In this document: piece after piece, positions 7,860 to 36,990 of the stretch
Position numbering within the stretch: the first letter of the stretch is position 1
Layout of the letters: every line of letters begins with the position of its first letter
From: a virus
Lineage: Duplodnaviria; Heunggongvirae; Uroviricota; Caudoviricetes
Strand: one strand, 5' to 3'
IMG/VR virus record: IMGVR_UViG_2778261450_000003
Coordinates: 1 to 38,191 of that record
DNA length: 38,191 bases
Made by a program: the position numbers and the translations under genes
Notes under the pieces: model-generated
The model's database searches: none
Seen by the model: only the letters and a program-made list of their open reading frames with translations
Told to the model about the DNA's origin: nothing

Positions 7860-9560
7860 TTAAACACTCGCCACGTTATACCAGGTGCCGTTAATCAGTT
7901 TCTGAAGCGGTCGGTAATACACGCCGCCGATGTTATCTGCCGAATTACTTCCGGTTTCCTGCACATTAATACCAGATAATCCATGGCCTGAAGGTGAGCG
8001 AAATGTCCAGGATATCTGGTTACCTCCCGGGTTGTAATACATTTCGGAACCATAACGCACATCCTGCACGCCGCCTGTTTTGGTCTGGTAACGGGCATCA
8101 AAGTTTCCGTAGTCTGACGGTGTTACCCGCCCGGTAACGTTTACAGGTTTATTACTCTGAATGCTGCCACTCTGAAAACGCAACACATGCACGCTATTGG
8201 CATAAACATCCAGCAGGCCATCACCATTCTGTTTCAGGCCGGTATCGTTATCCCCGAAAGCAATTGAGTTTCCGCCCAGCGCATTCTGAACGCCGATACC
8301 CAACGCACCGTTAACTTTCGAACCACCGCCAACAGATACTGCGTGTAACATGGAAACTTCACCCGTCCGCAAATTAATAGTGAACGGACGCAGGGGGCCA
8401 ATATCGCCATTCTCGCCCTGACCTTCACTGGTAGGGATAAGGTGCAGGCACTCTTCCGAACGACGAAAAATCAGGCCAAAAGCTTCGTTGAAAATCCTCA
8501 GTGCATTAACACCACGGATTTTCAGCTCCCCGGTCATGGTGTCGCCGTCGCGCTCAACAGCGTCTTTTGCTTTATCCATTGCGGCTTTTACTGCCTTTGA
8601 TGTGGCGGCGCGGTCTTCTGCGTCGCTGTCGGTGGAGTTGCTGTACTGCGCAAAGCCTTTCTCCTGCAGTGTTGCGTCCGGATGATGGCGGGATTTTTCG
8701 TGCTCTGCCAGTGCATTGCTTTGTTCTTCGTCGGGTGTCTCCGGGCGCAGGTCCTGTGGGCCGTCTCCTGTCATTTTTGCAAGTGGCGCGACAAAGTGTC
8801 GGAAGCCGTTACCGTCTGTATAAGACGCATGTTCCTGGCGGGCGCAGAACGTAAAAACGGTATTCCATTCGCCAGTAACAAATCCCTGCCAGCTTGCATC
8901 AATCCAGAGGGTATCCCCGACCGCAGCCGGCAGGCTGTAAGGTTCGCGCAGACTGACGCGCAGACCTCCCACATAACCCACGCCGGCGGCAACAGTAGCG
9001 GTACCGTCCTGATAGCTGACCTGAAAACCATCCCCCAGAAAGGCGGCTTCACCGTAGTGATCAAACGCCAGCAGCCGGCGGGCCTCATCCATTCCTGCAA
9101 GGCGTGCAGTGAAATCAATCTGCCAGACATCAGCGCTGACATCGATATGCATTGCTGCGGCTGCGCCGTCAAACTCCATGGAAAATGTGCGGATCAGGTT
9201 GTTTCCCTGCACGCCGTTCGCTGTTTTAATTTTTTGCTGACGAGGTGTGTGTGCAATCATGCAGAGCACGCCGCTTTCTTCGTTCAGCAGACCGATCCAG
9301 TTGTATTCGAAGTCGCCGACTGTCGTGTCCAGAATGATGGAAAACGCGGTCGCGTTCGGCGACAGGAGGCCGTACTGGGTGACCGGCGCACGATACTGAA
9401 TCATGGATTCATCAGGGAGTATCTCATCGCGGGGGATCTCTGCGGATTCATCCTGTCCCGGAATATATGCAAAAACAAATGTATCCGGGCGCGCAGGTTT
9501 TCCACTGATGATTTGATTTGCGCACCAGTGTTCGTACTGTTCAGTAATAATCGTGCTCAT
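7860..9560 (-). CDS. tail fibre protein 1
   Basis: 566-aa ORF, ATGA-coupled to the upstream baseplate gene; shares its N-terminal domain with fibre 2; Gly-rich C-terminal region. Confidence 0.6.
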   Translation of the reverse strand: MSTIITEQYEHWCANQIISGKPARPDTFVFAYIPGQDESAEIPRDEILPDESMIQYRAPVTQYGLLSPNATAFSIILDTTVGDFEYNWIGLLNEESGVLCMIAHTPRQQKIKTANGVQGNNLIRTFSMEFDGAAAAMHIDVSADVWQIDFTARLAGMDEARRLLAFDHYGEAAFLGDGFQVSYQDGTATVAAGVGYVGGLRVSLREPYSLPAAVGDTLWIDASWQGFVTGEWNTVFTFCARQEHASYTDGNGFRHFVAPLAKMTGDGPQDLRPETPDEEQSNALAEHEKSRHHPDATLQEKGFAQYSNSTDSDAEDRAATSKAVKAAMDKAKDAVERDGDTMTGELKIRGVNALRIFNEAFGLIFRRSEECLHLIPTSEGQGENGDIGPLRPFTINLRTGEVSMLHAVSVGGGSKVNGALGIGVQNALGGNSIAFGDNDTGLKQNGDGLLDVYANSVHVLRFQSGSIQSNKPVNVTGRVTPSDYGNFDARYQTKTGGVQDVRYGSEMYYNPGGNQISWTFRSPSGHGLSGINVQETGSNSADNIGGVYYRPLQKLINGTWYNVASV

Positions 9561-10192: not shown

Positions 10193-11373
10193 GCGCTCAC
10201 CTCCACAGTAAGGGATTCCAGACGGGGAACAGCCAGATCACTGAGAATATCCGGAAGAGAAAATGTAACCGACTCCACCTGTGGAAATACCTGGTGGATC
10301 TCTTCGCCCAGTCTGGACATGCTGAAACGGCTGTACGGCCATGTTTTCTGAACGTCATAATCGCTGTTTTCGCGAAATGCACAGCGAACCAGATTTTCCA
10401 CATTGCGCAATAACGTCTGAATTTCCTCATCGCTGAGGTTCAGCGTTGCATACAACCAGAGTGTCACGGTCAGGGGGTGGCGTGTTTCAGGCATGGAAAA
10501 ACAGCGCAGATCATCACCGTGTCCGTGATGACCTTCATCGTTAATGAATGCGTTTACTGCATCAACGAACGGTTCGGATGCGATGCCGGTATCCAGCAGA
10601 ATGTAAGCATTTGCTGTGCCGGGGCCGCGTGGTGCGTCATGCAGAAAATAGATGCGGTCGGCACTGATACCTGCAACGCCGGCAATTAATCCCCGGTAAA
10701 CAGCATCGGTGTGATAAGCGCCGGCAAGATTAAACTGATTGCGGACACGATCACGCAACTCGTCATCGCTTTCTTCGTTGGCACCCGGTGTGGTCAGCCA
10801 GTTTTCATCGTTCTCAACGCCGGCAATACCATCAATCGCCACCGGAAGGATGCGGTAATATCCCGGCGCAAGGTTAAAGCCGGCTCCGGCCTGTTCCGCA
10901 GAAACATCGATGTTCATGCTGAGTGTTCCTGCCGGAATAACGGTATCCCTGACAACGGTCAGCGTATAAATCACGCCGTTAATGCGTTCTGTCTGAATCT
11001 GCGTACCGGCCGACACGGTAACTGCGCGATCAATGTCGTTTTTGGTGAAACGAATCACGCCGGCTGCGTGCGTGGCTGCCTTGCGTTGCAGGTTTACCGC
11101 CCAGGCAAAAACATCAACGAATACACCGCTGGCATCAGCCAGAAACAGGTTTTTCATCACCACATTAACCAGCGCATCTTTCAGCCACATCACGGGTTTT
11201 GTGGTGATGGCTGTAATCAGTCGCCAGAACGGCGACATGCGGGAAGTGTTGGTGATAAGCCCTTCGTCTTTGACAATGGCTTCAAATTCAGCGCGAGTCT
11301 GTTCTTCGGTTACCGGCATGCCATTATCAGCCAGAATGCGCTCGTAATCTGCGGTAGGTTTGCCGTTAATCAT
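10189..11373 (-). CDS. baseplate J-like protein
   Basis: About 394 aa (ATG at 11373; ORF track begins one codon earlier at TTG); size and position after the W-like gene match Baseplate_J-family proteins. Confidence 0.55.
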   Translation of the reverse strand: MINGKPTADYERILADNGMPVTEEQTRAEFEAIVKDEGLITNTSRMSPFWRLITAITTKPVMWLKDALVNVVMKNLFLADASGVFVDVFAWAVNLQRKAATHAAGVIRFTKNDIDRAVTVSAGTQIQTERINGVIYTLTVVRDTVIPAGTLSMNIDVSAEQAGAGFNLAPGYYRILPVAIDGIAGVENDENWLTTPGANEESDDELRDRVRNQFNLAGAYHTDAVYRGLIAGVAGISADRIYFLHDAPRGPGTANAYILLDTGIASEPFVDAVNAFINDEGHHGHGDDLRCFSMPETRHPLTVTLWLYATLNLSDEEIQTLLRNVENLVRCAFRENSDYDVQKTWPYSRFSMSRLGEEIHQVFPQVESVTFSLPDILSDLAVPRLESLTVEVSA

Positions 11374-11716
11374 CAAGAGATACCGTAAAAGTCAGGGGTT
11401 CAAAAAAATCTTCGGTGTGGGCGCTAATCAGCAGGCGACCAGAAAGCGGGGTTTCTTCTGTCACACTGACCGTGCCAGGTGTGATGCGCTCATCATCTTC
11501 AATCAGCAGTGTCATCTGCATCATGATGTCGGCACGAAGCGTCGGGCTTTTTTCAGCCAGCAGGCGCGTTGCCAGTCCGCTCTCAATGATGGCGTGCTGG
11601 CAGTCCTGGGCAATACTTTCCCTGTTGTTGCATAACACCGGCTCACTGGCGCTGTTCAGCGTGAGATTGCGACCGGTGATGAGCAAATCAATGTAAAGCG
11701 GTTTATCAGTATGCAT
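11366..11716 (-). CDS. baseplate wedge protein (gpW/gp25-like, positional)
   Basis: 116 aa from the internal ATG at 11716 (the track's longer ORF would overlap the tape measure by ~150 nt); sits between tape measure and J-like gene. Confidence 0.4.
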   Translation of the reverse strand: MHTDKPLYIDLLITGRNLTLNSASEPVLCNNRESIAQDCQHAIIESGLATRLLAEKSPTLRADIMMQMTLLIEDDERITPGTVSVTEETPLSGRLLISAHTEDFFEPLTFTVSLDD

Positions 11717-27051: not shown

Positions 27052-27142
27052 CGGGATTCTGAAATCCCGCTTTTGCCTGTTTTGTGCGCGCTTCATATAT
27101 CGCGGCACGTTTTTTGCTCATTTACGGGATTTGTGAATCCCG
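27052..27142. promoter_or_regulatory. two copies of the palindrome CGGGATT-N4-AATCCCG flanking the parM promoter (candidate parC operator/centromere)
   Basis: Copies at 27052-27069 and 27125-27142, each preceded by TTTACG, centres 73 bp apart; the second lies in the 3' end of the replication gene. Confidence 0.4.
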
Positions 27143-29915
27143 TTTCTGTCTGTTTTTTGTTTCCACTGGTCAGGCCACCCCGCAGCAGGTCTGCTTTGCG
27201 GCGGGCGCGTTCAGTGGTTTCACTGATTCTCTGTGCGTGCTCTGCGTCGCGGATGGCGCGCAGCATGTCAGAAAGCACGGTAACGGGTGTTTTCATGGTG
27301 TTCTGGTCCTGCTGAAGTGTGGATGCCAGGCGTGCGGCGGCTTCAGGGTCTGATGCCCCCAGCTGTTCCAGATAGCTGGCGACCGGGTTATGGCGGATCT
27401 CCGTGCTGCTTACGCCGTGATTACGGCTCAGGCGTTGCCAGAGCTGCGTGATTCGGCTGTCCGGGCGGGTATCCGGTTTGCGTACAATTTCAAATCCCTG
27501 CGGTGCAATGATGCTGCCGTCAACGTACAGACTGCCGCCCCGTAACAGGTGCTGCATCTGCTGTTCACCAATATGCAGGCCGAGAGATTCGGCAGACTCC
27601 CGCCATTCTTTAGCGAGTAACTCGTGGTTATCAGGCAAAGGCTGTGGCTGTTTGCGGCTCTGTGTCCAGTTCTGCATTTCATCACTGCTGTTTTTGGCCT
27701 GTTTGTCACGCAGCGAACGCATCAGCGCCCGGCGTTCGTGCCGTTTCAGTGAGCGCATCCATTCATTCACTTCAATGCCGTCAGGAAGCTGCGGCCACGG
27801 TGCTGGCCGTTCTTCCGGCTGTTCTGTCCCGTTGTTGTCCGTTTCCTGTACACGGGGACAGTTATTGCCACGAGTCCAAGGGGCGGCAGGGCCGCCCTGA
27901 AGGTCAAAACCATTTTCGCGGGCGCTGTCTTCCGCTTCCGGTTTACGTCTTACCAGCTTCCAGTTATCCGGATGTGTGCACACACGGGAAGACTCCCCGA
28001 TGAGCGGCGACCAGATCCCGTAAATCTGTACGCTCTGTTCGCCGTAATCGTTCAGCTCATCTGCGAGGTCGTAGGCCGTGCGAATCAGGTAGTCTTTGCG
28101 TGGAACAAGTACGCCGCCCTGTTTCTCTATGTAGGAGGCAAAACACCCGGCATCAGCGGCAGCGAGTACCGCATCCATTGCGTCATTTTCCAGACGTTGT
28201 GGTCCCTGTGGGTTGCGGGCCATCTGACAGGCAAGGCGGCGCAGTTCACGCCACACCTGACGGGAGGGGATGCCAAAGAACTGGAACTGGCGGACCCGGT
28301 GAAGGCGCGCCCAGCCGATGGCGCGCTCCACGCTTTCTGCCATCGTCTTTCCTGATTCGTCGTCGATGCGCGGTTTGCCTGTTTTCGGGTCAATGCCATC
28401 CACGGCGTGGCTGTCCAGGTTCTTTCCGATGTAGGTGGCGATGTAGCTGGTCGGCGTACCTTTCGAACCGTCGACGTACTCTGCCTTAAAGCGCGGAGTT
28501 ATGTCATTACCCAGCTCGTGGCGGTCTTCGCGAATGGCAATATCACGGGTGATGTCCACGATGCTGTCGATTTCTTCAGGATGTGCAAAGACCATCATGT
28601 GCCAGTGCACGGTGCCGTCATGGTGAGGCTCCACCGTGCGAATGCCATACCAGCGCAGACCGTCGCGGTTCAGTTTTTTGCGGACCGCCTTAAAAAACGT
28701 GTTAACCAGGTAATCGCTGGAATCGCGCATGGTGGCCCCGTTCCATTTGGGGTTAGGGTGACCGTTCTCCGTTGTTGCGTGGTACTTCGAAGGGGTGGTG
28801 ACAGTCAGAAACACCGCTCTGTCGCCACGGGCTTCGGCCAGAAGCTCCAGCCCCTTCATGGTGGCCATCATTTCTGCCTTACGGTGAACCGGGTTACTTA
28901 CTCCCGCGTAATACACTGTCTCGAGATCAATCGTGAACCCGTCTTCGTTTTCCAGCATGAAACTTTTCAGGAAATCGCGTGTTTTCTCGCGCTGTGCGCG
29001 AAACTCGCTTAACGCGTTCTGGCTCAGATAGGGCGATGTTTTTCTGGAAACCAGACAGGCGGCGCGGAGTTGTTCTTCTCTCCACTCGCAACGTAACAGC
29101 CACAGTTTGCGTTTCCACCATTCCGCACAGGTCAGGCGAAGGATTGCTCCCGGCAGCAGCTCCGTGTCCGGTTCGTTCCTCCGGTCTTTGTCTGTTGTCA
29201 GTGCTTCATAATGCGGAGGCATGGCGTGCAGGTGTAACGCCATGCGGGCCAGCATCTGATACGCCTTCAGCGTTACATCCATGGTCAGCTCGCCATCAGT
29301 CGCACCAAAGCCATCGCAGAGCTTTTCGAAGGTGCTGCTGAACATCGCCGCCGTCATGGTGGCCAGCGTCTGTATCTGGTGTTTGTTGAGCTGCGGCAGG
29401 TAAAGCAAATCGTCCAGGCGTTCGCGTCCGGCAAGGGAGCGATAACCCGGTGTCAGCCAGCGTCCGTCAGTGCGATCCAGACGTTCGAATATTTTGCGCA
29501 GGGTTCCGCGTGCATAGCGTTCCGCCTGCCAGCTCTTTTTGCCTTTCCGGCGATCGGCTTCCTGTTTTTTGCGCAGGAAGGAGAGGTGGCGAATAAGCGG
29601 ATCGCGCAGATAGGATGGCAGCAGGCGCAGCGAGGCCATGGCTTCATCCACCGCGCCGCGTGCCTGTTTTCTGGCTTCTCTGGCCAGTGTGATGGTTTTG
29701 TCCTGTTTTTCCTGTGCGTCCAGGCTTTTATTAATCAGGTTGCCCAGCGGTGTGGCGGAGAACGCCGCATCAGCTATTTCCTGGCGGCGCTCGTTCTCTT
29801 CCCGGTAGGCATCCAGCCAGGAGGAAAGCGCGGATTCAGGAGCGGGGATCCCCGTTCCTTCACGCCCCACTGCGTGGCGCGGTTGTTGCCAGTCCCTGAT
29901 GTACTCTGCCGTCAT
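27093..29915 (-). CDS. replication initiation endonuclease, P2 gpA-like
   Basis: 940-aa ORF, the largest early gene; contains HHDGTVHWHMMVF, resembling HUH rolling-circle endonuclease metal-binding motifs; position upstream of the late region as in P2. Confidence 0.75.
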   Translation of the reverse strand: MTAEYIRDWQQPRHAVGREGTGIPAPESALSSWLDAYREENERRQEIADAAFSATPLGNLINKSLDAQEKQDKTITLAREARKQARGAVDEAMASLRLLPSYLRDPLIRHLSFLRKKQEADRRKGKKSWQAERYARGTLRKIFERLDRTDGRWLTPGYRSLAGRERLDDLLYLPQLNKHQIQTLATMTAAMFSSTFEKLCDGFGATDGELTMDVTLKAYQMLARMALHLHAMPPHYEALTTDKDRRNEPDTELLPGAILRLTCAEWWKRKLWLLRCEWREEQLRAACLVSRKTSPYLSQNALSEFRAQREKTRDFLKSFMLENEDGFTIDLETVYYAGVSNPVHRKAEMMATMKGLELLAEARGDRAVFLTVTTPSKYHATTENGHPNPKWNGATMRDSSDYLVNTFFKAVRKKLNRDGLRWYGIRTVEPHHDGTVHWHMMVFAHPEEIDSIVDITRDIAIREDRHELGNDITPRFKAEYVDGSKGTPTSYIATYIGKNLDSHAVDGIDPKTGKPRIDDESGKTMAESVERAIGWARLHRVRQFQFFGIPSRQVWRELRRLACQMARNPQGPQRLENDAMDAVLAAADAGCFASYIEKQGGVLVPRKDYLIRTAYDLADELNDYGEQSVQIYGIWSPLIGESSRVCTHPDNWKLVRRKPEAEDSARENGFDLQGGPAAPWTRGNNCPRVQETDNNGTEQPEERPAPWPQLPDGIEVNEWMRSLKRHERRALMRSLRDKQAKNSSDEMQNWTQSRKQPQPLPDNHELLAKEWRESAESLGLHIGEQQMQHLLRGGSLYVDGSIIAPQGFEIVRKPDTRPDSRITQLWQRLSRNHGVSSTEIRHNPVASYLEQLGASDPEAAARLASTLQQDQNTMKTPVTVLSDMLRAIRDAEHAQRISETTERARRKADLLRGGLTSGNKKQTETGFTNPVNEQKTCRDI

Positions 29916-32299: not shown

Positions 32300-32541
32300 G
32301 CTCTGGCTTCCTTCAGTAGCTGGTTAAACAAGTGAGTAAGCGGGTTGCCACACCCGAACTGCATCGGGTTTACCTGGTAAGAAAAGCGACCACCTGTTTT
32401 GCGCTCTTTTCTTATGACTGAACCGCTGCGCCAGAGTCGGCGTAACTCCGCATTAATGGCTGTGGTTGGGGTATTCAGTGCTGCGGCGATTTCTCCACCG
32501 CTACAACCCGGATTGGCGGCGATGTAGTCCAGAATGGTCAT
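32296..32541 (-). CDS. small winged-helix-like DNA-binding protein (putative)
   Basis: 81-aa ORF; GCSGGEIAAALNTPTTAINAELRRLWRSGSV resembles an HTH/winged-helix recognition unit; overlaps neighbours by 4 nt. Confidence 0.4.
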   Translation of the reverse strand: MTILDYIAANPGCSGGEIAAALNTPTTAINAELRRLWRSGSVIRKERKTGGRFSYQVNPMQFGCGNPLTHLFNQLLKEARA

Positions 32542-33921: not shown

Positions 33922-34272
33922 TTATAAATCAGCCTGTTTAATAAAACTTTGCCCGCGAAGCAGACGATCAACCGTGCGAAGTGCTTCGTATAATGTGAAA
34001 TCCTGCCCGAACTGATTGTCGCCGTTGCTCAGTGCAAAAATGCGGTTTCCGGTAAATGGGTTGCGCTGGCATCTGTGGACCACGATTCCAGCCTTCTCAA
34101 TCAGCCAGGTGTGCTCGCCGATTTGTTTTACAGCGTGGCCATCCGGTGTTGCGTGTGTTTCGCTCAGGCTATAGCGAGAGCTGCTGCGTGATGCACTGGT
34201 GGCGAAACGGTTAGCATGACGTTCCGCCCCGTTGCGGAATCGCTGCCGTGAAGAATTACGTCGTTGCTTCAT
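33922..34272 (-). CDS. hypothetical basic protein
   Basis: 116 aa from the internal ATG at 34272; the start is uncertain. Confidence 0.35.
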   Translation of the reverse strand: MKQRRNSSRQRFRNGAERHANRFATSASRSSSRYSLSETHATPDGHAVKQIGEHTWLIEKAGIVVHRCQRNPFTGNRIFALSNGDNQFGQDFTLYEALRTVDRLLRGQSFIKQADL

Positions 34273-34414
34273 ACAAAAAATATCCTGCTGCTGTTGCGAA
34301 TTTGTGCCGGGTTTTAGCCATGCCCGGCGCATGGTTTTGTGGTATTTTTCCACCGCCCGCAGTCTTGAAGGGGCTGTAAAGGGCGCGTGTTCAACCAACC
34401 ACAAAGGAATAAAT

Positions 34415-34597
34415 ATGTCCTATGATAAAAAGGTTACTGATGCGCTAAATGCGGCAATTTCTGTGTTAGGGGAAGCGCCGATCAATCCTCCGAATAAAGG
34501 GGAGCCATCAAAAACCATTCGTCAGCTCGCGAATGACTTGCGTACTCTTGCGTTAAGAAAATATCCTCAGGCAAGTACATGGATTCTTCCTGAGTGA
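34415..34597 (+). CDS. hypothetical small protein on the opposite strand inside the early operon
   Basis: 60 aa from the ATG at 34415 with AGGA RBS; AT-rich; convergent with the 85-aa gene with abutting stops. Confidence 0.35.
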   Translation: MSYDKKVTDALNAAISVLGEAPINPPNKGEPSKTIRQLANDLRTLALRKYPQASTWILPE

Positions 34598-34855
34598 TTA
34601 TTTAACTCCAGTGCCGGAGATTTTCTCTGGCACATTTCCGACCTCAATAACCATGTTGTCACTGCTTAAAATTTGTCGATAAAGTTCAAAGACTTCTTTG
34701 ACGGGGAAACGGAGCGCAACGCCGTATATTGGTTCTAAAATCATTCCAATAGTTTCTTTGATGCCATCTCGACAAAAATGGCCGTATTCATCGTCAGGAT
34801 GCCGAGTGATATCTTTCAAATCTTCGCCATTCTGAAGCTTTGATTTTAATGCCAT
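34598..34855 (-). CDS. hypothetical small protein (AT-rich)
   Basis: 85-aa ORF; its ATG overlaps the stop of an upstream 51-aa ORF. Confidence 0.45.
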   Translation of the reverse strand: MALKSKLQNGEDLKDITRHPDDEYGHFCRDGIKETIGMILEPIYGVALRFPVKEVFELYRQILSSDNMVIEVGNVPEKISGTGVK

Positions 34856-35010
34856 CAGGCCAGCGAACGTTCTGTGTAATTCGTGGTAGTCAACGCTGAT
34901 TTCGACCTGCGGCTTACCTGGAAAAACGAGTAAAACCTTCTGGTGTGGTTTTCGTTTTTCAGGGTTTCTAGTCGTTCCAGTAGCGCTTTATCTGTGCTAT
35001 CAGTATTCAT
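34855..35010 (-). CDS. possible small ORF (51 aa) between the Cox-like gene and the 85-aa gene
   Basis: ORF MNTDSTDKALLERLETLKNENHTRRFYSFFQVSRRSKSALTTTNYTERSLA starting 2 nt after the Cox-like stop and ending TGATG-coupled to the next gene; weak RBS. Confidence 0.25.
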   Translation of the reverse strand: MNTDSTDKALLERLETLKNENHTRRFYSFFQVSRRSKSALTTTNYTERSLA

Positions 35011-35012
35011 GT

Positions 35013-35474
35013 TTATAGCCCTGCCTGCAGTGCACTGATGCTATTGCGTTTTAGAACCCGATGCTCTTTACCGGTTGTGCGGCGATAAGTCTTCTTGTCA
35101 CGCATCAGACGATCAATGTAGTGTTTTTCTTCTGGAGTGATGAGAGCGCGGCAATGAGCAACAGCTTTCCAGTATTCTTGCAACATGATGAAGCGTTTAG
35201 GGCGCTTTGACCCGGGCATGCCTTCTCTATGAACTGGCACCTGCGCACGATCCATCAGGTTGCGCACCGATTTGAGGGTACGACCAGTTAGATAAGCAAA
35301 CTCTTCCGGAGTGGCGAAGATTTGTTTTTGTAGCTCTTCCAGGCTGATGTCTCTGATGCGCGCAGCTTGTGTTTCTGTCATTTTGCAGGTACGCAGAGCT
35401 CGTCCGTTGTCTAGCGGGAACTGACGTAAAAAATGAGTTTCCATATTTAATTCGTTTTCTCGCATTTCTTTCAT
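35013..35474 (-). CDS. Cox-like early regulator with N-terminal extension
   Basis: 153 aa from the ATG at 35474 (GGAG RBS); C-terminal half (TPEEFAYLTGRTLKSVRNLMDRAQVPV...W) resembles P2 Cox (QEFAKLIGKSTGAVRRMIDKGKLPV...W); divergent from the repressor gene. Confidence 0.5.
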   Translation of the reverse strand: MKEMRENELNMETHFLRQFPLDNGRALRTCKMTETQAARIRDISLEELQKQIFATPEEFAYLTGRTLKSVRNLMDRAQVPVHREGMPGSKRPKRFIMLQEYWKAVAHCRALITPEEKHYIDRLMRDKKTYRRTTGKEHRVLKRNSISALQAGL

Positions 35475-35598
35475 TTGATAAACTCCACTGCTTGAGGCTT
35501 GTTGAGGCATGTTTAGCCCAGCAAGCTCTTGGTGTTATGAGCGGTCAACGCCGCTTGCGAGTGTCAATTGATGTATACAATGAGAGATCTGACATATT

Positions 35599-35898
35599 AT
35601 GTCAATACCACTACATGAAAAACTACAGTTAATCCGAGATTCAGAACGCCTTAAATCTAAGCAAGTTGCTGATTTGATTGGTGTAAATTATGGTACGTAC
35701 AACGGTTATGAGTTAGGCAAGGCGAAAATGTCATTGGAGGCTGCGATCAAACTCTTTGGTCATCCCCGTTTCCATAAGTATCAAGATTGGTTCATGTATG
35801 ACCGTATAGACCCTAGCCGAGGTCAGATCGCCCCGGCTCTTGCACACACTGGGCCAGAGACAACACAATCTGGCCCCTCCGGGAAACAGATTGGTTAA
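35599..35898 (+). CDS. immunity repressor, P2 C-like
   Basis: 99-aa ORF; ADLIGVNYGT...YQDWFM...RGQIAPALAHTGPETTQSGPSGKQIG matches remembered P2 C (ADLTGVPYGT...TLWFM...SGQIAPALAHFGQNETTSPHSGQKTG); directly upstream of the integrase. Confidence 0.75.
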   Translation: MSIPLHEKLQLIRDSERLKSKQVADLIGVNYGTYNGYELGKAKMSLEAAIKLFGHPRFHKYQDWFMYDRIDPSRGQIAPALAHTGPETTQSGPSGKQIG

Positions 35899-35967
35899 CG
35901 CTTTATAAACATTACATTTTCACCATTTGTTTTCAGGATGGTGAACTGACTGTTGGAGGGACTTCTT

Positions 35968-36990
35968 GTGTCTGTTAAGAAGCTCGAAGATGGTCGCTAT
36001 GAAGTGGATGTAAGGCCGCGCGGGCGCGACGGAAAGCGTATCCGGCGGAAGTTTGAGAGAAAAGCGGAGGCGCATGCTTTTGAACGAAGCATCATTGCAA
36101 AGTATCAGAACCATGACTACCTGAGTCGTCCTGCAGACAAGCGGCGACTGAGTGAGTTTATCGCTTTGTGGTGGCAGCTCATTGGACGTAATAAGAACTA
36201 CGCTAATCGTAGGCTTAGTGCGTTAAGCTGTATTTGCCAGGATATGGGGGATCCCATGATTTACCAGATTGATGGTCGATGCCTTATCGAATACCGGGCA
36301 TATAGATTGGGGCAAGGTATAAAGGCTTCAACGATTAACCATGATCTTTTTGCTCTGAGCGGTATGTTTAAGGCGATGGCTGAGATCGATGAGTTTCATG
36401 GGGATAATCCTGTAGAGGCAATATCTGCTTTAAAAGAGCCAAAAACTGAGATGTCTTACTTTACCGAGTCTGAGGTTAAGCGGTTATTATCCTTATGCAC
36501 TGGTGATTATTTCCGGATTGCTGTTCTCTTGCTTGCAACTGGTGCGAGGTGGGGTGAGGCTTATCAGCTCAAAGCGGAAAATATTGTGGGTGATAGGGTG
36601 ATATTTACGCTTACAAAAAATGGCGAGCGACGAGTTGTTCCCATTTCAGAGGAGGTTGTAAATATTGTAAGGCATCGAGAATCTGGTCGACTTTTTCGTG
36701 TGAGTTACAAAACTTTTCGTTTAAAAATGAAAGAGGCAAAACCTAATTTACCTGATGGTCAGGCAGCTCATGCATTGCGTCATACGTTTGCTACTCATTT
36801 TATGATGAAGGGCGGGAATATAATTGCGTTACAAAGAATTCTTGGTCACGCAGATATTTCACAAACAATGACATATGCTCATTTTGCACCTGATTATTTA
36901 TTGGATGCAGTGAATTATAATCCTCTTGTGGGAATGTCCACATTGTGTCCACACTTTGGAGGCAAAGTGGGGATTTTAGAGGGTAGTTAA
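35968..36990 (+). CDS. int: tyrosine integrase, P2 Int-like
   Basis: About 340 aa from the GTG at 35968 (GGAGGG RBS; the track's ORF starts at TTG 35953); N-terminus KKLEDGRYEVDVRPRGRDGKRIRRKF and C-terminal HALRHTFATHF...LGH...TMTYAH catalytic region match P2 Int. Confidence 0.85.
   Translation: MSVKKLEDGRYEVDVRPRGRDGKRIRRKFERKAEAHAFERSIIAKYQNHDYLSRPADKRRLSEFIALWWQLIGRNKNYANRRLSALSCICQDMGDPMIYQIDGRCLIEYRAYRLGQGIKASTINHDLFALSGMFKAMAEIDEFHGDNPVEAISALKEPKTEMSYFTESEVKRLLSLCTGDYFRIAVLLLATGARWGEAYQLKAENIVGDRVIFTLTKNGERRVVPISEEVVNIVRHRESGRLFRVSYKTFRLKMKEAKPNLPDGQAAHALRHTFATHFMMKGGNIIALQRILGHADISQTMTYAHFAPDYLLDAVNYNPLVGMSTLCPHFGGKVGILEGS

Follow-up and report, generated by a model that had tools for sequence, protein, structure and literature searches.

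Comparative sequence analysis indicates that positions 34273-35010 of the window (the whole 38,191-nt stretch of viral DNA that was analysed) form an accessory cassette, rare and swappable, within the early operon of a prophage of the P2-like kind. The reading that we favour, at a probability of roughly 55%, is that the block carries a moron-type unit, i.e., an ORF with a promoter ahead of it and a terminator-like hairpin behind it, which lies antisense to the operon in the gap that separates cox from the early gene that follows. This reading draws on the layout of the block and its patchy presence among relatives, on the many unrelated cargo genes found behind one conserved control element, and on a promoter-like motif within that element.

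On its left, the insert is flanked by a minus-strand early gene at 33922-34272, the next gene of the early operon, which encodes a DUF4761 protein (Pfam PF15958, E = 1.1e-68) homologous to P88 gp04. The right flank is a minus-strand gene at 35013-35510 for a Cox-like early regulator, with weak Pfam and PHROG matches to Cox and with homologues labelled "Cox family DNA-binding protein" in RefSeq. Between these backbone genes, the plus strand encodes P (34415-34597; 60 aa), a relative of which is annotated as a CDS in RefSeq (WP_057698146.1); P shares its orientation with C and int and is thus antisense to the early operon. The minus strand encodes M, a 137-aa gene at 34598-35010 as judged from alignments to intact relatives, which is read in the window as two ORFs of 85 aa (34598-34855) and 51 aa (34855-35010) with a 1-nt overlap. 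The M start codon lies 2 nt past the cox-like stop. A preliminary description of this DNA had listed the plus-strand ORF and both minus-strand ORFs, and all three exist as given; the convergent stops directly abut, and an overlap of transcripts is unavoidable with the plus-strand gene being antisense to the early operon. The same description likened the block to a moron in its AT-richness. The insert is indeed lower in GC content than the window (44.6% versus 51.7%), but the difference is modest, with 7.6% of equal-sized windows being as low or lower.

When presence and absence among relatives were checked, 12 P88-like phage records proved to be without the block: in P88 itself, Cox and DUF4761 are 37 bp apart, and in P88 and the 11 other records, the match ends at the DUF4761 start. 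An accessory insertion, as had been suspected, is thus borne out over a conserved set of early genes. Of 5426 E. coli genomes, 1385 have the DUF4761 backbone gene; only 17 E. coli genomes, or ~1% of the carriers of a P88-type backbone, have a match to the block's 5' control region at this junction, and the exact cargo of the window is complete in one E. coli genome and partial in one more. More broadly, the control element lies just upstream of the hypervariable plus-strand ORF P, is shared by 16 unrelated plus-strand ORF families, and ranges from Escherichia to Xenorhabdus and Sodalis. The same architecture recurs in P2-type, 186-type (with CI and CP76), and P88-type prophages, in a slot that extends from the cox/cII end of the early operon to the next early gene (orf78-B; DUF4761 here). 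In a sister group, a ~170-nt structured noncoding stretch takes the place of the ORF at the same slot. On balance, these comparisons argue for a hypervariable accessory slot in many P2-, 186-, and P88-like (Peduoviridae) prophages.

The combinations of genes found in the slot bear on how its contents relate to each other. Family P1 occurs with M1, M2, and M10, and M1 occurs with P1, P2, P3, and P13; P also occurs where no convergent minus-strand ORF lies within 60 nt of the P stop, and the RefSeq annotation of L004 has the plus-strand gene without a minus-strand partner. Because P and M families recombine freely, their two slots are taken as independent, and the locus would, more likely than not, comprise two separate pieces, namely the antisense moron unit and the early-operon accessory gene M. 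Many lineages repeat the tail-to-tail arrangement of P and M, their stops being separated by 0-7 nt, and E. coli and Enterobacter share one stable pairing (phrog_14615 with phrog_12968); this recurrent layout and stable pairing may reflect a functional link between P and M. Hotspots of P2-like phages treated in the accessible portions of the iLund4u preprint (10.1101/2024.10.15.618418) and of PMC13586616 are gpA-portal (old/tin), Z/fun, and tail-to-CI/int, and no slot between cox and orf78/B that holds convergent small genes and a conserved control element is described in those portions. Literature searches for a cox-B hotspot or for an antisense gene in the P2 early region found nothing specific. 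Variability and defence hotspots of P2-like phages were reportedly the subject of work by Rousset in 2022.

Alignments with relatives recast the minus-strand side of the block. What had been described as a 51-aa micro-ORF coupled to an 85-aa gene is a single 137-aa gene split by one lost base. The frameshift site is a T4 run at 34949-34952, where intact relatives have T5 or CTTTT: an IMG/VR relative of ~97% identity (L016) has T5, and the E. coli relatives L001 and L002 have one extra base (GGTGTGG-TTTTCG in the window versus GGTGTGGCTTTTCG). With one base put back, the window has a 137-aa ORF whose product shares 99% identity with P0001, an intact protein from the database, and the correct frame upstream of the 85-aa ATG still encodes the conserved PHQKVLLVFPGKPQVEIS. 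From the aligned sequences, M appears to be inactivated in the window by a 1-nt deletion in a homopolymer, with P intact. Such a state, M frameshifted and P intact, is tolerated under most models and is uninformative on toxin-antitoxin function. Programmed frameshifting was considered for M and rejected, as no shift is needed in the relatives and the site differs by homopolymer length. For annotation, the 51-aa and 85-aa "genes" are to be recorded as one frameshifted gene.

In relatives, M is a single gene that, to judge by its substitution pattern, is under purifying selection (dN/dS 0.14). The family comprises 33 clusters, all from Enterobacterales where the source names an organism, and a full-library profile search with the M alignment yielded ~3 true representatives among 1.84 billion proteins. 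AlphaFold2 gives an alpha/beta model for the 137-aa protein (pLDDT 73), with which a fold search returned no informative match. The C-terminal tail of M1 changes with the type of the neighbouring plus-strand cassette, which fits an M frame that runs into the 3' flank of the cassette.

For P, a profile search recovered a family of 29 clusters from six Enterobacterales genera, the ORFs of which are uninterrupted and of conserved length even at 11-40% identity, with a helical hairpin modelled confidently. AlphaFold2 predicts two helices for the P of the window (pLDDT 80.5), suggestive of a soluble-looking two-helix (helical-hairpin) protein. The dN/dS of P (0.3-0.66) is no different from that of its antisense frames and is therefore unusable as coding evidence. 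Neither P nor M had a match in Pfam, NCBIfam, or PADLOC, nor in PHROGs with an assigned function; for ten other cargo proteins, Pfam, NCBIfam, PHROGs, and PADLOC gave nothing informative, with only weak noise from PADLOC. The sole matches for cargo were to PHROGs of unknown function and, in the case of one alternative cargo, to ECs1072 (NF033230). In these searches, P and M thus appear to be without known relatives or folds.

Downstream of the P stop, the unit has its own plus-strand hairpin at 34611-34633 (GTGCCGGAGA-TTT-TCTCTGGCAC, then ATTTCC), within the last codons of the minus-strand M gene. The 61-nt segment at this 3' hairpin folds with -19.6 kcal/mol, at z = -4.6 on the plus strand versus -1.8 on the minus strand; the hairpin is strong but has only a weak T-run, and it was missed by a generic scan. 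In many of the other cassette types, a GC-rich hairpin particular to that type comes right after the plus-strand stop, in several cases with a T-run behind it.

Upstream of P, the control element opens with two plus-strand hairpins. H1a (34303-34331) is the minimum-energy fold, with a 10-bp stem (TGTGCCGGGT / GCCCGGCGCA), a 9-nt loop, and -19 kcal/mol; H1b (34318-34338; CCATGC-CCGGC-GCATGG, then TTTT), with the stem-loop itself at 34318-34334 followed by TTTTGTGGTATTTTT, has -10.5 kcal/mol when folded alone. The two overlap and are mutually exclusive, H1a being the stronger. This hairpin region is conserved near base for base in otherwise unrelated P2-like phages. The GCCGG/CCGGC core of H1a is kept in most lineages and lost in L143 and L139, and H1a is also present at the "empty" site of L070, which is without a plus-strand ORF. 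The core of H1b is found in at least 40 IMG/VR contigs and in the isolated phages SEN4/SEN5, vB_YenM_42.18, and vB_YpM_115/117; 82 of the 5426 E. coli genomes carry it, and its genome-contig matches span 12 genera of Enterobacterales. On a MAFFT alignment of the leaders, H1a was all that RNAalifold recovered, owing to misalignment of the variable middle; in its stead, the leaders were folded one by one and aligned in a fixed register. Rfam covariance models had no match in the window between 32000 and 37500 (E <= 1), nor at the element in L020, L051, L135, and L136.

H1b is the hairpin that had been called an oddly placed terminator. A plus-strand hairpin at this position is real and conserved; since a probable promoter comes directly after it and an alternative hairpin shares its bases, "terminator" is only one of several readings of it. 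As a terminator, H1b has a 6-8 bp stem followed by UUUUGUGGUAUUUUU, and it competes with H1a, which is stronger and is the first to form; in P2-type lineages, its U-tract is degraded (UCUUGUG or CCUUGUG). Nor is H1b at the 3' end of a plus-strand unit, what lies upstream on that strand being only the antisense of the early operon. A consensus terminator scan did not call the site, which we attribute to the extension of the stem into the T-run. An upstream ORF from an ATG in the hairpin loop (MPGAWFCG...) was also considered and rejected, as it has no Shine-Dalgarno sequence, is not conserved in length (3 codons in L139), and, on our reading of the sequences, lies upstream of the likely transcription start.

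Directly after the hairpin comes TGTGGTATTTT (34338-34348, plus strand), an extended -10-like motif of the form TRTGnTAnnnT, the conservation of which makes it the probable promoter of P. In every cassette variant with a plus-strand ORF, T-12, A-11, T-7, and the TG at -15/-14 are kept, and the middle bases vary (TATTTT, TAGGAT, TAATTT, TACTAT, TATGCT, TATGAT, and others); eleven different 11-mers all fit TRTGnTAnnnT, with further ones in other genera. L139 keeps the motif as TATGTTATGAT though both hairpins are gone, L006-type leaders keep TGGTATTCT, and 12 variants without an adjacent plus-strand ORF do not have the motif. The promoter reading thus follows from a motif that is conserved only at positions critical to a -10 element, that persists without the hairpins, and that is absent without a plus-strand ORF; transcription of P would start near 34354-34356. 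The motif has no -35 box and was not called by a generic sigma-70 scan, which requires one. In many lineages, the Shine-Dalgarno sequence and start of the next minus-strand gene are ~10-30 nt upstream of the element, such that there is no common room for a plus-strand promoter outside it. Reading of the aligned sequences revealed neither a sigma-70 promoter upstream of the hairpins nor a P2 late-promoter dyad (TGT-N12-ACA), LexA box, or DnaA box.

Past the motif, in the presumed 5' UTR, the predicted fold has a further plus-strand hairpin, H2 (34351-34389); at its position, other leader types have hairpins of different sequence (CGCCCG..GGGCG, ATGCCGCC..GGCGGCAT, ACGCCTG..CAGGCGT, and ATGCCT..AGGCAT). 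A conserved RBS context, ACCACAAAGGAATAAAT, follows at 34398-34414 with the Shine-Dalgarno sequence AAGGA at 34404-34408, and CACAA(A)GGA is kept ahead of unrelated ORFs.

In the proposed arrangement, two overlapping alternative GC-rich hairpins would precede the extended -10 motif TRTGnTAnnnT, a 5' UTR hairpin, and the conserved RBS, with a fast-evolving small ORF (encoding a 60-aa helical hairpin here) and its own 3' hairpin to follow; M would be an early-operon accessory gene, translationally adjacent to cox. P would be made in the lysogen, in which Pe, the early promoter, is silenced by the repressor C. In the lytic cycle, convergent early transcription would read through the P unit as antisense and thereby shut P down. 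The upstream hairpin and T-run would insulate the P promoter from plus-strand read-in, or otherwise tune the promoter. Rapid turnover at a prophage hotspot points to a role in phage-phage or phage-satellite conflict rather than in core phage functions.

Against this promoter model stand the plus-strand folding of the leader, upstream hairpins included, and a tract complementary to the Shine-Dalgarno sequence that lies upstream of the proposed start. The leader of the window folds better than shuffled sequences at z = -3.8 on the plus strand versus -0.5 on the minus strand, and for 31 leaders, the mean z is -2.7 versus -1.7, with 25 of the 31 favouring the plus strand. Positions 34335-34343, a pyrimidine tract and TGTGG, could pair with the RBS context, and the duplex of the Shine-Dalgarno sequence with this upstream tract has -9 to -13 kcal/mol in most variants. 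Such a folding bias and anti-Shine-Dalgarno tract would be better explained by a plus-strand start upstream of the hairpins, making the ~110-nt element the 5' leader of the P mRNA: H1a would be an anti-terminator, H1b with its U-tract a terminator, and the U/C-rich tract would pair with the Shine-Dalgarno sequence as a fourU-type or anti-Shine-Dalgarno switch, the fold setting P output via temperature, a protein, or the antisense early RNA. Mutually exclusive hairpins that share bases would explain the near-invariant 45-nt core across genera. In a fixed-register alignment of 16 distinct sequences, two of the six H1b core pairs each have one sequence with both sides changed and the pair kept (C-G to U-A), and one of these two also has two U.G intermediates, compatible with pairing on the plus strand only; 17 of 500 shuffles reach two such pairs. 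The anti-Shine-Dalgarno helix is likewise predicted in most of the 31 leaders, with G.U pairs (L005, L031, and L045) that would be A.C on the minus strand. We nevertheless consider a structured leader of this kind unlikely. No plausible plus-strand promoter is present upstream, where, in many lineages, the RBS or start of the neighbouring minus-strand gene lies within ~10-30 nt and the contexts are mutually unrelated; A34344 and T34348, invariant in the 16-leader alignment and both unpaired in the predicted fold, are better explained by a -10 hexamer; and L139 keeps the motif, RBS, and ORF without either hairpin. Moreover, the anti-Shine-Dalgarno register is irregular, with bulges and mismatches, and the recovery of H1a alone by RNAalifold also counts against the structured leader.

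The preliminary description had further put forward a toxin-antitoxin module. In such a pair, or one resembling an immunity system, M would be a harmful early protein and lysogen-made P would neutralise leaky M, or the reverse, the swappable unit being P plus a matching C-terminal tail of M. The convergent genes with abutting stops in many lineages, the covariation of the M1 tail with P type, and the one P-M pairing that is stable across genera would all be in keeping with this. However, the partners are promiscuous, P also being found without any convergent ORF within 60 nt, and the tail covariation is more simply that of an M frame reading into the 3' hairpin region of the cassette; in addition, neither protein matches a toxin-antitoxin or defence family, a convergent layout is atypical of type II systems, and a type I toxin, being small and hydrophobic, resembles neither product. 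No positive evidence for the toxin-antitoxin reading has thus emerged, and a dedicated pair is not supported because P and M families recombine freely; we hold it to be very unlikely. A role for the plus-strand RNA itself as the effector is equally hard to credit. The transcript would then be an antisense RNA, or a source of transcriptional interference, directed against a leaky early operon (towards M and cox in one direction and the replication genes in the other) so as to reinforce lysogeny, with the ORFs secondary or incidental. Three phage sub-types share its antisense placement within the early operon, the hypervariable ORFs are under weak constraint (dN/dS up to 0.66), and the sister group has its noncoding structured stretch at the same slot; yet an RBS is conserved ahead of every ORF, the ORFs stay open despite their divergence to 11-40% identity, the 3' hairpin would stop most plus-strand transcripts ~40 nt into M and leave little antisense reach, and P88 and most relatives manage without the unit.

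Morons of temperate phages are a concept of Hendrix and Juhala, exemplified by the P2 lysogenic-conversion genes old, tin, and Z/fun. The cassette is like a moron in that an ORF, preceded by a promoter-like motif and followed by a terminator-like hairpin, is inserted between genes that are adjacent in relatives, in its GC content below that of the backbone, in an orientation that would permit prophage expression, and in its presence or absence among close relatives. It differs from morons in being inside and antisense to the early lytic operon, the transcript of which must read through it, in the one near-invariant element common to 16 unrelated cargo families, and in the extra hairpin upstream of the putative promoter. 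As in other P2-like hotspots, the slot lies between conserved P2 core genes and its cargo is rapidly exchanged; compared to typical defence systems, the cargo is far smaller (~55-200 aa) and has no meaningful match to a PADLOC model.

Unlike type II toxin-antitoxin genes, P and M are convergent instead of co-directional, their partners are not fixed, and they match no toxin or antitoxin family. Type I systems with convergent, 3'-overlapping transcripts are known from B. subtilis prophages (txpA/ratA and bsrG/SR4), and P and M resemble these as convergent prophage units with 3' ends that must overlap; in contrast to them, P and M are soluble-looking and both coding with an RBS, with no hydrophobic toxin and no sign of a noncoding antitoxin. 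Two other familiar kinds of element are sigma-70 promoters of the extended -10 type (TGn / TRTGn) and RNA thermometers of the fourU or anti-Shine-Dalgarno type. The former would be matched by TRTGnTAnnnT, kept at exactly the promoter-critical positions, and the latter by the U-rich tract with its predicted complementarity to the Shine-Dalgarno sequence; these two readings conflict because the anti-Shine-Dalgarno tract lies upstream of the start that such a promoter would use.

P2-like prophages are among the best-mapped temperate phages. Our comparisons suggest that they have another slot, inside the early lytic operon, with backwards-facing cargo and one near-invariant control element. A bolder proposal, which we regard as quite unlikely, is that the dual hairpin (45-nt invariant), extended -10 motif, and Shine-Dalgarno-complementary tract together form an undescribed portable insulator and RNA switch across Enterobacterales P2-like phages. 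This would gate ~60-aa helical-hairpin proteins (in the sister group, the ~170-nt structured RNA) by lysis-lysogeny state, and the P proteins, with or without M, would be new miniature effectors in conflicts of phages with each other or with satellites (P4). Should the element prove to be a state-dependent switch, it would provide a compact natural part for lysogen-specific expression, and the orphan 55-200 aa cargo would constitute a candidate pool for defence, anti-defence, and anti-satellite functions that current HMM catalogues miss.

The window is a complete P88-like prophage (Xuanwuvirus, Peduoviridae, P2-like), with the integrase (35953-36990) and a C-type repressor (35599-35898) on the + strand at its right end, and with a - strand early operon that begins with a Cox-like gene (35013-35510), includes a DUF4761 gene (33922-34272), and runs on to a replication endonuclease of 940 aa (27093-29915). 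The Cox-like protein matches Pfam Phage_Cox weakly (E = 0.15) and has 165 aa, versus 175 aa in E. coli relatives, 141 aa in P88, and 91 aa in P2. In phage P88 the Cox-DUF4761 gap is 37 bp; in the window, ~740 bp lie between the two genes, and early transcripts must traverse the entire + unit held there before reaching DUF4761 and the replication genes. The DUF4761 backbone gene is present in 1385 of 5426 complete E. coli genomes, and the match of 12 P88-like phage records to the window ends at the DUF4761 start; the block is thus not a conserved early gene set, the case that the preliminary description had named as its own refutation, but an accessory, swappable insertion. The AT-richness ascribed to it in the preliminary description holds in direction (GC 44.6% vs 51.7%), its degree being modest (7.6th percentile). 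Elsewhere in the window, a weak Rfam match to c4-a1b1 (C4 antisense RNA targets; 32337-32386, - strand; 18.7 bits vs a gathering threshold of 46.7; E = 0.3) is probably due to chance.

All three small ORFs of the block, and the hairpin, were recovered where the preliminary description had placed them; the proposed coupling of a 51-aa micro-ORF to an 85-aa gene was not. These two - strand ORFs are a single gene, M (34598-35010), broken in the window. Both E. coli relatives have one additional base (window GGTGTGG-TTTTCG vs GGTGTGGCTTTTCG), and L016, an IMG/VR relative ~97% identical to the window, has T5 in place of T4 at 34949-34952. Ahead of the 85-aa ATG, the conserved PHQKVLLVFPGKPQVEIS can still be read in the correct M frame, and restoring one base yields a 137-aa protein that is 99% identical to an unbroken database protein. 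As relatives carry M as one ORF, the apparent "coupling" at ATGA results from the homopolymer frameshift, itself either a real pseudogene mutation or a sequencing error. The start codon of M lies 2 nt past the stop of the Cox-like gene, a spacing that suggests translational coupling to cox. The family of M (M1) is small, with 33 clusters in 5.8 billion proteins and ~3 true representatives among 1.84 billion, and is under purifying selection (dN/dS 0.14). Its 115-aa core is conserved and its C-terminal tail differs with the neighbouring cassette (totals of 135-137 aa with the P1 family of + ORFs, 202 aa with the ECs1072 type, 162-181 aa with a 78-aa type, and 141 aa with another), because the M frame extends into the 3' flanking sequence of the adjacent cassette.

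Convergent with M is P, a + strand ORF of 60 aa (34415-34597), upstream of which the preliminary description saw an oddly placed terminator. That hairpin is part of a widespread control element, the core of which (GTGCCGGGTTTTAGCCATGCCCGGCGCATGGTTTTGTGGTA, 34303-34344) recurs in near-identical form. Among isolated phages, SEN4/SEN5, vB_YenM_42.18, and vB_YpM_115/117 have it; it also occurs in at least 40 IMG/VR contigs, in 82 of 5426 E. coli genomes, and in genomes of Escherichia albertii, Serratia, Pectobacterium, Brenneria, Pantoea, Erwinia, Kosakonia, Xenorhabdus, Sodalis, Izhakiella, and Trabulsiella; Rfam holds no model for it. Three kinds of backbone carry the element, i.e., P88-type (DUF4761), classical P2-type (Cox, orf78-like, RepB), and 186-type (CI, CP76/cII, RepB), always in the same place, past the cox/cII end of the early operon and ahead of its next early gene. 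Nearly all loci that bear a cassette have a + ORF beginning 36-90 nt downstream of the element, with a conserved RBS context (CACAAAGGA) and an unrelated coding sequence. Sixteen + ORF families were counted behind the element, including several flavours of ~60-aa proteins, a 78-aa type, 91-95-aa types, and two different 155-aa proteins, one of which is the NCBIfam "ECs1072 family."

Within the element, two hairpins overlap and are mutually exclusive: H1a (34303-34331, + strand; 10 bp, -19 kcal/mol), which is the minimum-energy fold, and H1b (34318-34334, + strand; -10.5 kcal/mol), the hairpin noted previously. Two of the six core pairs of H1b each have one sequence (among 16) altered on both sides with pairing kept: the loop-closing pair is C-G in 13, U.G in 2, and U-A in 1 (L142), and the outer pair is C-G in 15 and U-A in 1 (L125), a pattern matched by 17 of 500 shuffles. 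The H1a core is mostly kept, being lost in L143 and L139. Shared use of bases by the two hairpins would account for the core being nearly invariant. A 19-codon ORF (MPGAWFCGIFPPPAVLKGL; 34322-34379, + strand) with a PPP motif starts at an ATG in the hairpin loop; this ORF was judged non-functional, as it has no Shine-Dalgarno (SD) sequence and varies from 3 to >40 codons among variants, and its N-terminus is "conserved" solely through nucleotide conservation.

Directly 3' of H1b is the -10-like 11-mer TGTGGTATTTT (34338-34348, + strand), followed by a 5' leader hairpin (34351-34389, + strand), in whose place other leader types have hairpins of divergent sequence, and then by the RBS of P. Across all cassette variants, changes in the 11-mer are confined to positions irrelevant for an extended -10 promoter (e.g., TGTGGTAGGAT, TGTGGTAATTT, TGTGGTACTAT, TGTGATATGCT, TGTGGTATGAT, CATGGTATTCT); it persists as TATGTTATGAT in an Enterobacter lineage with neither hairpin, and is missing in the 12 variants without a directly adjoining + ORF. 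Since many lineages have the RBS or start codon of their next - strand gene within ~10-30 nt on the upstream side of the element, in unrelated contexts, the sole common location for a + promoter is inside the element. The 11-mer is thus the predicted P promoter, from which transcripts would begin near 34355. The main rival, a longer + transcript with a masked SD, would fit the pairing potential of the SD: its ACCACAAAGG is complementary to the pyrimidine tract plus TGTGG that immediately precede this presumed start, with duplex energies of -9 to -13 kcal/mol for most variants and G.U pairs in several lineages. It would also fit the leader as a whole, which, against shuffles, folds better on the + than on the - strand. 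What is shown is a conserved element that combines hairpins with promoter-like features.

P itself belongs to a real small-protein family. It is annotated in RefSeq relatives and has only three close clusters; a profile of ~56-65-aa + ORFs from different loci retrieves 29 clusters from six genera, all "hypothetical." AlphaFold2 predicts a confident two-helix hairpin (pLDDT 80.5). P is fast-evolving, as its dN/dS is 0.3-0.66; searches returned no family, PDB-sequence, or defence-catalogue match, and the window's version is absent among 50,697 phage records. Fourteen nt past its stop, within the last codons of M, lies the strong + strand hairpin GTGCCGGAGA-TTT-TCTCTGGCAC (34611-34633), followed by ATTTCC; the 61-nt segment holding it has z = -4.6 on the + strand vs -1.8 on the - strand. 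Many other cassette types have their own GC-rich hairpin past the + stop, several being canonical terminators (e.g., ACGGGGCTG..CGCCCCGTTTTAT). The layout of the P unit, given the predicted promoter, is thus the promoter-ORF-hairpin of a moron. At the L026, L136, and L137 loci, convergent P-M gaps of 24-35 nt hold a perfect GC-rich hairpin (e.g., AGTAAGGGGCTTATGCCCCTTACT); in L026, a bidirectional terminator-like AAAACGGCAT..ATGCCGTTTTT lies ~45-72 nt past the + stop and should also impede the early transcript.

The block had further been put forward as a candidate toxin-antitoxin (TA) module. The tail-to-tail layout of P and M, with stops 0-7 nt apart, is widely recurrent, and one pair, phrog_14615 and phrog_12968, stays together in both E. 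coli and Enterobacter; however, partners are otherwise freely exchanged (P1 occurs with M1, M2, and M10, and M1 with P1, P2, P3, and P13), a convergent - ORF within 60 nt of the P stop can be missing altogether, and the L004 annotation lists the + gene but no - partner. Moreover, neither P nor M has TA or defence homology, the orientation is unlike type II, and the products are unlike type I. We thus regard a TA pair as improbable, and favour P and M as two variable slots.

The slot also occurs in other versions. A sister P2-like group (L051:2835-3080; likewise L056, L076, L086, L097, L103, L108, L116, L119, L120, L129, and L132) has the hairpin H0 and H1a, then no + ORF but ~170 nt of very structured non-coding sequence, which holds the long hairpin CCTATCTGGGAGCACACCC..GGGTGCGCTCTCAGATAGG followed by GCCGGGCTTTCCCGGC (MFE about -100 kcal/mol; z = -2.6 and -3.2 on its two strands) and has no match in an Rfam search; this may be a non-coding RNA cargo. 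In the 186-like prophage L070 (~8850-9050), an "empty" slot between a small - strand ORF and an orf78-like gene has neither a + ORF nor the TRTGnTAnnnT motif. As it keeps H0 and an H1a-like hairpin whose loop differs (GTGCCGGG TTGTATTCACG CCCGGCGC), H1a may be a backbone part marking the insertion point. L023 has two element copies (10734-10760 and 11619-11645), 885 bp apart around a 241-aa - strand gene, with a clear + ORF only after the second, which suggests cassette arrays or the decay of one cassette. The Xenorhabdus bakwenae chromosome (NZ_CP119194.1) has four copies (L163, L166, L169, and L170), each with a different small + ORF.

In the lysogen, C would repress the early promoter Pe, and P would be transcribed from the extended -10 promoter up to its 3' hairpin; upon induction, convergent Pe transcription and the resulting antisense RNA would switch P off. 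The upstream hairpin and T-run would serve as a one-way insulator on the + strand only, which early transcription would pass because the - strand sequence after the hairpin is CUAAAACCC. The + unit resembles a classical moron and the known P2 variability hotspots, but differs from both in lying inside, and antisense to, an early operon, in having one near-invariant control element common to unrelated cargoes across an entire bacterial order, and in having M beside it as a second variable slot. The hotspot literature, in the portions available, names only gpA-portal, Z/fun, tail-to-CI/int, and a generic "between integrase and primase" class. From their prophage-hotspot location, fast turnover, and orphan status, the cargo proteins may act in phage-phage or phage-satellite conflict. 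Behind the element, the ECs1072 family phage-associated protein (NF033230) is an alternative cargo in two loci (L002:4140-4607 and L004:3140-3610), and this orphan family thereby gains a defined genomic context.
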